Shown: positions 29,287-32,200 of the stretch, one piece after another
Layout: every line of letters starts with the position of its first letter
Position numbering within the stretch: position 1 is the stretch's first letter
Assembly: GCF_044324785.1 (NCBI RefSeq)
Contig: NZ_CP172127.1
Reading direction: 5' to 3' (one strand)
DNA: 64,000 nucleotides
DNA from: Escherichia coli
GTDB lineage: Bacteria; Pseudomonadota; Gammaproteobacteria; Enterobacterales; Enterobacteriaceae
Program-made: the position numbers

Positions 29287-32200
29287 TAAGGACACGACAA
29301 TGACGATTTTTGATAATTATGAAGTGTGGTTTGTAATTGGCAGCCAGCATCTGTATGGCCCGGAAACCCTGCGTCAGGTCACCCAACATGCCGAGCACGT
29401 CGTTAATGCGCTGAATACGGAAGCGAAACTGCCCTGCAAACTGGTGCTGAAACCGCTGGGTACCACGCCGGATGAAATCACCGCTATTTGCCGTGACGCG
29501 AATTACGACGATCGTTGCGCTGGTCTGGTGGTGTGGCTGCACACCTTTTCCCCGGCCAAAATGTGGATCAACGGCCTGACCATGCTCAACAAACCGTTGC
29601 TGCAATTCCACACCCAGTTTAACGCGGCGCTGCCGTGGGATAGCATCGATATGGACTTTATGAACCTGAACCAGACTGCACATGGCGGTCGCGAGTTCGG
29701 CTTCATTGGCGCGCGTATGCGTCAGCAACATGCCGTGGTTACCGGTCACTGGCAGGATAAACAAGCCCATGAGCGTATCGGCTCCTGGATGCGTCAGGCG
29801 GTCTCTAAACAGGATACCCGTCATCTGAAAGTCTGCCGTTTTGGCGATAACATGCGTGAAGTGGCGGTCACCGATGGCGATAAAGTTGCCGCACAGATCA
29901 AGTTCGGTTTCTCCGTCAATACCTGGGCGGTTGGCGATCTGGTGCAGGTGGTGAACTCCATCAGCGACGGCGATGTTAACGCGCTGGTCGATGAGTATGA
30001 AAGCAGCTACACCATGACGCCTGCCACACAAATCCACGGCGAAAAACGACAGAACGTGCTGGAAGCGGCGCGTATTGAGCTGGGGATGAAGCGTTTCCTG
30101 GAACAAGGTGGCTTCCACGCGTTCACCACCACCTTTGAAGATTTGCACGGTCTGAAACAGCTCCCTGGTCTGGCCGTACAGCGTCTGATGCAGCAGGGTT
30201 ACGGCTTTGCGGGCGAAGGCGACTGGAAAACTGCCGCCCTGCTTCGCATCATGAAGGTGATGTCAACCGGTCTGCAGGGCGGCACCTCCTTTATGGAGGA
30301 CTACACCTATCACTTCGAGAAAGGTAATGACCTGGTGCTCGGCTCCCATATGCTGGAAGTCTGTCCGTCGATCGCCGTAGAAGAGAAACCGATCCTCGAC
30401 GTTCAGCACCTCGGTATTGGCGGTAAAGACGATCCAGCGCGCCTGATCTTCAATACCCAAACTGGTCCGGCGATTGTCACCAGCCTGATTGATCTCGGCG
30501 ATCGTTACCGTCTGCTGGTTAACTGCATCGACACGGTGAAAACGCCGCACACCCTACCGAAACTACCGGTGGCGAATGCGCTGTGGAAAGCGCAGCCGGA
30601 TCTGCCAACCGCTTCCGAAGCGTGGATCCTTGCTGGTGGCGCGCACCATACCGTCTTCAGCCATGCGCTGAACCTCAACGATATGCGCCAGTTCGCCGAG
30701 ATGCACGACATTGAAATCACGGTGATTGATAACGACACCCGCCTGCCAGCGTTTAAAGATGCGCTGCGCTGGAACGAAGTGTATTACGGATTTCGTCGCT
30801 AAGTAGCTGCATCAGGTATGTAACGCCTGATGCGACGCTGACGCGTCTTATCAGGCCTACACGCTGCGATTATGTAGGCCGGGTAAGCAAAGCGCATCCG
30901 GCATTGTTTTCCCCCTCGCCCCTTTGGGGAGAGGGCCGGGGTGAGGGGAAACGACCTCTCAGGAGTCAACATGTTAGAAGATCTCAAACGCCAGGTATTA
31001 GAAGCCAATTTGGCGCTGCCAAAACATAACCTGGTCACGCTCACCTGGGGCAACGTCAGCGCCGTTGATCGCGAGCGCGGCGTCTTGGTGATCAAACCTT
31101 CCGGCGTCGATTACAACGTCATGACCGCTGACGATATGGTCGTGGTCAGCATCGAAACCGGTGAAGTGGTTGAAGGTACGAAAAAGCCCTCCTCCGACAC
31201 GCCAACTCATCGGCAGCTCTATCAGGCATTCCCGTCCATTGGCGGCATTGTGCATACGCACTCCCGCCACGCCACCATCTGGGCGCAGGCGGGCCAGTCA
31301 ATTCCGGCAACCGGTACCACCCACGCCGACTATTTCTACGGCACCATTCCCTGCACCCGCAAAATGACCGATGCGGAAATCAACGGCGAATATGAATGGG
31401 AAACAGGAAAAGTGATCGTCGAAACCTTCGAAAAACAGGGAATCGACGCAGCACAAATGCCCGGCGTTCTGGTCCATTCTCACGGCCCGTTTGCATGGGG
31501 CAAAAATGCCGAAGATGCGGTGCACAACGCCATCGTGCTGGAAGAAGTCGCTTATATGGGGATTTTCTGCCGCCAGCTTGCTCCGCAGTTACCGGATATG
31601 CAGCAAACGTTGCTGGATAAACATTATTTACGTAAGCATGGTGCGAAGGCATATTACGGGCAGTAATGACTGTATAAAACCACAGCCAATCAAACGAAAC
31701 CAGGCTATACTCAAGCCTGGTTTTTTATTGGATTTTCAGCGTGGCGCAGGCAGGTTTTATCTTAACCCGACACTGGCGGGATACCCCGCAAGGAACCGAA
31801 GTTTCCTTTTGGTTAGCGACGGACAGCGGGCCGTTGCAGGTTACGCTTGCACCGCAAGAGTCCGTGGCCTTTATTCCCGCCGATCAGGTTCCCCGCGCTC
31901 AGCATATTTTGCAGGGTGAACAAGGCTTTCGCTTGACGCCGCTGGCGTTAAAAGATTTTCACCGCCAACCGGTGTATGGCCTTTACTGTCGCGCCCATCG
32001 CCAGTTGATAAATTACGAAAAGCGCCTGCGTGAAGCTGGCGTTACCGTCTACGAGGCCGATGTGCGCCCGCCAGAACGCTATCTGATGGAGCGGTTTATC
32101 ACCTCACCGGTGTGGGTCGAGGGTGATATGCGCAATGGCGCTATCGTTAATGCCCGTCTGAAACCGCATCCCGACTATCGTCCGCCGCTCAAGTGGGTTT

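Follow-up and report, generated by a model that had tools for sequence, protein, structure and literature searches.

The probable LexA operator of polB (dinA) at the araD-polB junction of an Escherichia chromosome

Features of the araD-polB junction

The window (the whole stretch of DNA analysed, 64 kb in length) is part of an Escherichia chromosome and runs in the orientation opposite to that of K-12. Two neighbouring genes of its + strand, araD (L-ribulose-5-phosphate 4-epimerase, 30941-31666) and polB (DNA polymerase II, 31741-34092), were identified from the ORF list, and both names agree with the annotation of matching E. coli genomes. araD ends with a TAA stop codon (31664-31666), and polB begins with a GTG codon that is invariant across genera. 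Between them lies CTGTATAAAACCACAG (31670-31685, + strand), 4 nt past the araD stop and 56 nt before the polB GTG, which forms the 16-nt CTGT-N8-ACAG core of a 20-nt LexA (SOS) box, GACTGTATAAAACCACAGCC (31668-31687, no strand assigned). The motif had been recognised in an earlier note on this DNA, which also placed it between the araD stop and a terminator hairpin; both statements agree with the positions found here, the hairpin being located at 31696-31724.

This hairpin comprises 11 pairs and a 7-nt loop (5' arm 31696-31706, loop 31707-31713, 3' arm 31714-31724), with a folding energy of -16.2 kcal/mol (z = -6.8; 0 of 200 shuffled sequences as stable). The T-run has its first T in the 3' arm, at 31721, and its last at 31726, giving a U6 tract in the RNA. 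The element, a stable GC-rich stem-loop with a U-run directly after it, lies 30 nt past the araD stop and has the features of an intrinsic terminator, and folding and a terminator scan returned the same stem; the element (31696-31726, + strand) was annotated as the putative intrinsic terminator of araBAD. It is symmetric enough to resemble a terminator of the minus strand too (-15.4 kcal/mol). Published Term-seq tables for cells grown without arabinose list no araD 3' end (PMC7815308). A sub-threshold match to the Rfam C0465 sRNA on the minus strand (31690-31807; 23.3 bits versus a gathering score of 40, E = 0.08), which overlaps the hairpin and the 5' end of polB and was the only Rfam result, was rejected, probably being noise.

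The same arrangement is found in K-12: the 20-mer is identical, the spacing to the -10 hexamer, the hairpin and the GTG start is the same, and the same genes, araD and polB, flank it. The araD-polB spacer has the same 74 bp in both and is identical from the araD stop through the T-run, K-12 differing by only two substitutions just past the T-run (TTTTTTATTGG in the window, TTTTTGATGG in K-12). At least 80% of an 85-bp region around the junction (31661-31745) was carried by 5380 of 5426 complete E. coli genomes. Over 601 bp of araD-polB sequence, most E. coli shared only 90-95% identity with the window, whereas strain VCSW5 (soil/drain sediment) shared 99.8%. Such values suggest that the window derives from a divergent or cryptic Escherichia lineage deposited as E. 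coli.

The polB promoter and its overlap with the terminator

The K-12 polB transcription start site (TSS) was mapped at 65803 on the minus strand, with a 23-nt 5' UTR, and the published -50 to +1 string opens exactly with the 20-nt box (Kim et al. 2012, PMC3415461). This position corresponds to a T at 31718 (+ strand) in the window, within the 3' arm of the hairpin, and comparison with the mapped promoter, a check proposed in the earlier note, put the box at -50 to -31, overlapping the promoter of the gene it regulates. The resulting 5' UTR (31718-31740) was free of significant structure (-5.1 kcal/mol, z = +0.6). A -10 hexamer, TATACT (31706-31711, -12 to -7), lies in the hairpin loop, 6-7 nt upstream of the mapped TSS; TATAAT occupies this position in most other genera, Klebsiella among them. 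The orthologous K. pneumoniae TSS has a 24-nt UTR, TATAAT and the same box register (PMC3415461). Support for these TSSs is thin (2 reads in E. coli, 4 in Klebsiella) and each call is weak singly, as expected of a gene that is repressed; what carries weight is the agreement of the calls across genera. The start of a UV-induced transcript detected on tiling arrays converts to approximately 31715 (PMC3009722).

A recognisable -35 hexamer was not found 16-18 bp upstream of the -10. From the positions of the TSS and the -10 we infer a candidate weak -35, CAGCCA (31683-31688, + strand), with a 3/6 match to TTGACA and a 17-bp spacer, which overlaps the right half-site of the box. No promoter was called by a consensus promoter scan of 31500-31900 because this -35 is poor.

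The -10 hexamer is preceded by a C at -13, which is a feature of sigma-S promoters. This would fit the contribution of RpoS to polB expression reported by Dapa (2017), as cited in a review. An RpoS genomic SELEX peak near polB was discarded, since it is assigned to the rapA/hepA side and not to the polB promoter.

The earlier note had described the arrangement as unusual, with an SOS operator embedded in the 3' region of the preceding operon, upstream of its terminator. The location of the operator upstream of the terminator stands, but this is not true of the promoter, whose -10 lies in the hairpin loop and whose TSS lies in the 3' arm, so that no terminator read-through is required of polB transcripts; the paradox is smaller than it seems at first sight. 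This promoter-within-terminator detail follows directly from public TSS data.

A very unlikely alternative, the best placed of those considered, is that of a functional box with polB transcribed chiefly from further upstream, by read-through from araBAD or from a weak start inside araD, the hairpin then acting as an attenuator and LexA as a roadblock. Transcription of araBAD has to pass the operator, the -35 is poor, and a second polB-assigned TSS has been mapped within araD (K-12 65946, approximately 31575 in the window, 166 nt upstream of the polB start; 2 reads; Kim et al. 2012, PMC3415461). Against this, a hairpin of such stability followed by U6 should stop most upstream transcripts; the downstream TSSs of two genera fall 6-7 nt past a near-invariant TATAAT/TATACT; the UV-induced transcript begins at about 31715; and lineages without an adjoining araD keep the box, the -10 and the spacing.

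Motif strength, conservation and hairpin retention

Two CTGT-N8-ACAG matches were present in the window versus 0.58 expected, and 10 of 100 shuffled sequences contained at least two; the bare pattern at polB is barely, and only modestly, above chance. The second match (22181-22196, CTGTTGCTGTGCACAG) has a GC-rich spacer, falls outside the 12 best LexA-matrix matches and is probably a chance match. A LexA matrix was built leave-one-out from the 17 other SOS boxes of PMC3009722, polB being excluded. With this matrix the polB 20-mer scored 6.5-7 bits and ranked 9th in the window, with about seven equal matches expected per random 64 kb; in the 64-kb window scan the log-odds score failed to set the box apart from background. 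The Berg-von Hippel heterology index (HI, leave-one-out) was 12.6, the weakest of the 18 classical boxes scored and borderline with respect to the limit of about 15 for LexA sites. The published HI of polB is 13 (PMC11228462, Table 1), and HI < 15 is the published criterion for LexA boxes, given in the source that describes ciprofloxacin induction. The CTG and CAG trinucleotides, invariant in LexA boxes and 10 bp apart, are present in the polB box. A low matrix score had been named in the earlier note as grounds for rejecting the site, and the value obtained came close to that, while the HI fell on the accepted side; the score alone neither proves nor refutes the box, and discriminates poorly because polB is among the weakest classical boxes.

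The best LexA-matrix match in the window was elsewhere, at 47064-47083 (CGCTGGGAAGATAAACAGTA, 17.3 bits, far above the polB box). It falls in the 3'-terminal part of apaH (ORF 46296-47144), lacks a promoter context and is identical in K-12; its conservation is uninformative because the sequence is coding (RWEDKQYF).

Conservation was analysed in a scan of one genome per species, which yielded 80 polB loci representing over 20 enterobacterial genera; upstream sequence was sufficient in 79 of these loci. CTG-N10-CAG was found at the same register in all 79 usable loci, and the half-sites, the -10 hexamer, their spacing and the GTG start were likewise kept in 79 of 79, with the sequence in between varying freely. 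The box is followed by a fixed 20 nt and then by (A)ACCAGG(C/T)TATAAT or TATACT. As this first comparison was anchored on the box, it was repeated with a MAFFT alignment of 28 lineages, anchored solely on polB coordinates; the only invariant intergenic columns were CTGTA.A.A....CAG, GG.TATA.T and the GTG start. The half-sites carried 2.0 bits of information per column, the -10 hexamer 1.79 and ACCAGGC 1.73, versus 0.37 for the sequence separating the box from the hairpin and 0.28 for the flank preceding the box. The above-chance status of the polB box rests on its fixed position with respect to the promoter together with this invariance. That the palindrome is a chance occurrence without regulatory role, as the pattern counts and the low matrix score taken by themselves would allow, has next to no probability: chance is effectively refuted by the conservation of the motif between flanks that are free to vary, and the register of the box is fixed relative to the mapped TSS of a gene whose expression is LexA-dependent in published data.

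Just as hard to credit is a role of the conserved element at the araBAD mRNA 3' end (stability or termination) in place of one at polB: the box does lie in the araBAD 3' UTR, 4 nt past the stop, and the minimum-free-energy fold includes a small stem of 5 bp (31660-31673), but the left half of that stem falls in the unconserved flank (0.28 bits per column), and the box is retained in loci with araD at a distance of 666-1427 nt and in loci whose upstream gene lies on the other strand.

Retention of the hairpin, counted as a stem of at least 6 bp enclosing the -10, differed from that of the box. It was present in 55 of 56 loci in which araD ends at most 150 nt away, versus 8 of 22 in which the distance to araD exceeds 200 nt (Fisher p = 4e-9, uncorrected for phylogeny). 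Loci of both classes all kept the box, the -10, the GTG start and the spacing. Fifteen lineages, nearly all without an adjacent araD, had no hairpin, the 3' arm being unpaired, and retained the box, the -10 and the spacing; loss of the hairpin with the box and the -10 kept means that the promoter/operator function is separable from the terminator function. The 5' arm was conserved even where the 3' arm was lost, and probably matters also as a promoter spacer (-22 to -12). Covariation support for the hairpin is unobtainable because this 5' arm, overlapping positions -22 to -12 of the promoter, is nearly invariant.

Genes had been inserted between araD and polB at several loci (L016, L023, L028, L044, L051, L057 and L067), and the point of insertion always immediately preceded the LexA box. 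Salmonella and several Citrobacter carry an opposite-strand gene of 127-163 aa at this place, and their hairpin has for the most part decayed. In several genera a same-strand gene of about 210 aa (motif ADCAIVAGAGI...LTGG...SDPLHM) lies between araD and the polB operator. The rule that a co-directional upstream gene entails a kept hairpin was rejected, as some lineages whose same-strand neighbour, of about 210 aa or of 170 aa, ends beside the box had no hairpin; only the association of the hairpin with araD adjacency was strong.

Regulation of polB by LexA

Taken together, the sequence at 31668-31687 is very probably the LexA operator of the polB (dinA) promoter, with the -10 in the loop of the araBAD terminator and the TSS in its 3' arm. 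The proposal of the earlier note that this is the SOS box of polB was borne out by published data: the exact 20-mer, identical to that of K-12, is listed as the SOS motif of polB, preceding a UV-induced gene/transcript (PMC3009722), and K-12 polB was induced 4.7-fold by AZT, with a 3.1-fold lexA-dependent effect (PMC11228462). Induction by ciprofloxacin and dependence on lexA3 have also been published for K-12 polB, and polB is listed among the SOS-box genes in a published review. This experimental support was obtained in K-12 or Klebsiella and is carried over to the window lineage, where the same regulation would be expected. The polB/dinA operator was reportedly described around 1990 by Iwasaki et al. 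and Bonner et al., and the box is said to have been catalogued with an HI of about 12 by Lewis et al. in 1994 and Fernandez de Henestrosa et al. in 2000. The site is the already known polB/dinA operator in a sister lineage, and is nothing new in kind.

A LexA dimer bound to the 20-mer at -50 to -31 would cover the weak -35 region and, in undamaged cells, would most likely hinder access of RNA polymerase to the -35 and the DNA upstream of it, presumably by steric occlusion. DNA damage would lead to RecA-stimulated cleavage of LexA, freeing the promoter and raising polB expression a few-fold; with so poor a match to the LexA consensus (HI about 13), repression would be weak and induction modest. 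RNA arriving from araD carries both hairpin arms and the U-run and would be expected to terminate there, while the polB mRNA, starting in the 3' arm, would lack the 5' arm and should not terminate itself.

The weak classical boxes of dinB, dinG, ftsK and yoaA (HI about 9-13) share with polB a conserved CTG-N10-CAG, degenerate spacer and outer positions and few-fold induction. The dinB, dinG and ftsK boxes lie in the lower part of the score range, yet well above polB, and the polB box differs from other weak boxes in lying far upstream (centre at about -40.5), where its overlap with the promoter is confined to the -35 side. In compact co-directional gene pairs, intrinsic (Rho-independent) terminators overlapping the promoter of the following gene have a GC-rich stem and a U-run with the downstream -10 inside, as at araD-polB; unlike these terminators as a class, the araD-polB hairpin was lost in 15 lineages, and termination is in this case predicted. 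A weak operator covering only the -35 side would explain the modest SOS inducibility of DNA polymerase II, and one short intergenic region would combine the roles of terminator, operator and promoter. Predictors of LexA sites could be benchmarked against the cross-genus footprint in the case of weak boxes, for which matrix scores by themselves are inadequate; beyond correct annotation, the importance of the site is otherwise small.

Since about 60 bp are common to the araBAD terminator, the polB core promoter and the LexA operator, it is conceivable, if rather doubtful, that heavy arabinose-driven transcription alters DNA polymerase II expression without DNA damage. Candidate routes would be read-through into polB, displacement of weakly bound LexA, or occlusion of the polB promoter by terminating polymerases. 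The loss of the hairpin where araD is not adjacent fits selection acting on the junction and is no proof of coupling; a study of the AraC regulon reportedly noted effects of arabinose on polB. Such an effect, if true, would tie a polymerase of the DNA-damage response to an operon of sugar catabolism.

One E. coli genome, Z1323HEC0462 (L083, NZ_CP148331.1, 2501-3300), carried an IS200C element of about 700 bp between the LexA box and the hairpin/-10, with tnpA on the opposite strand. The insertion point corresponds to 31694/31695 of the window and separates the operator from the promoter, and polB of this strain is predicted to escape LexA control.
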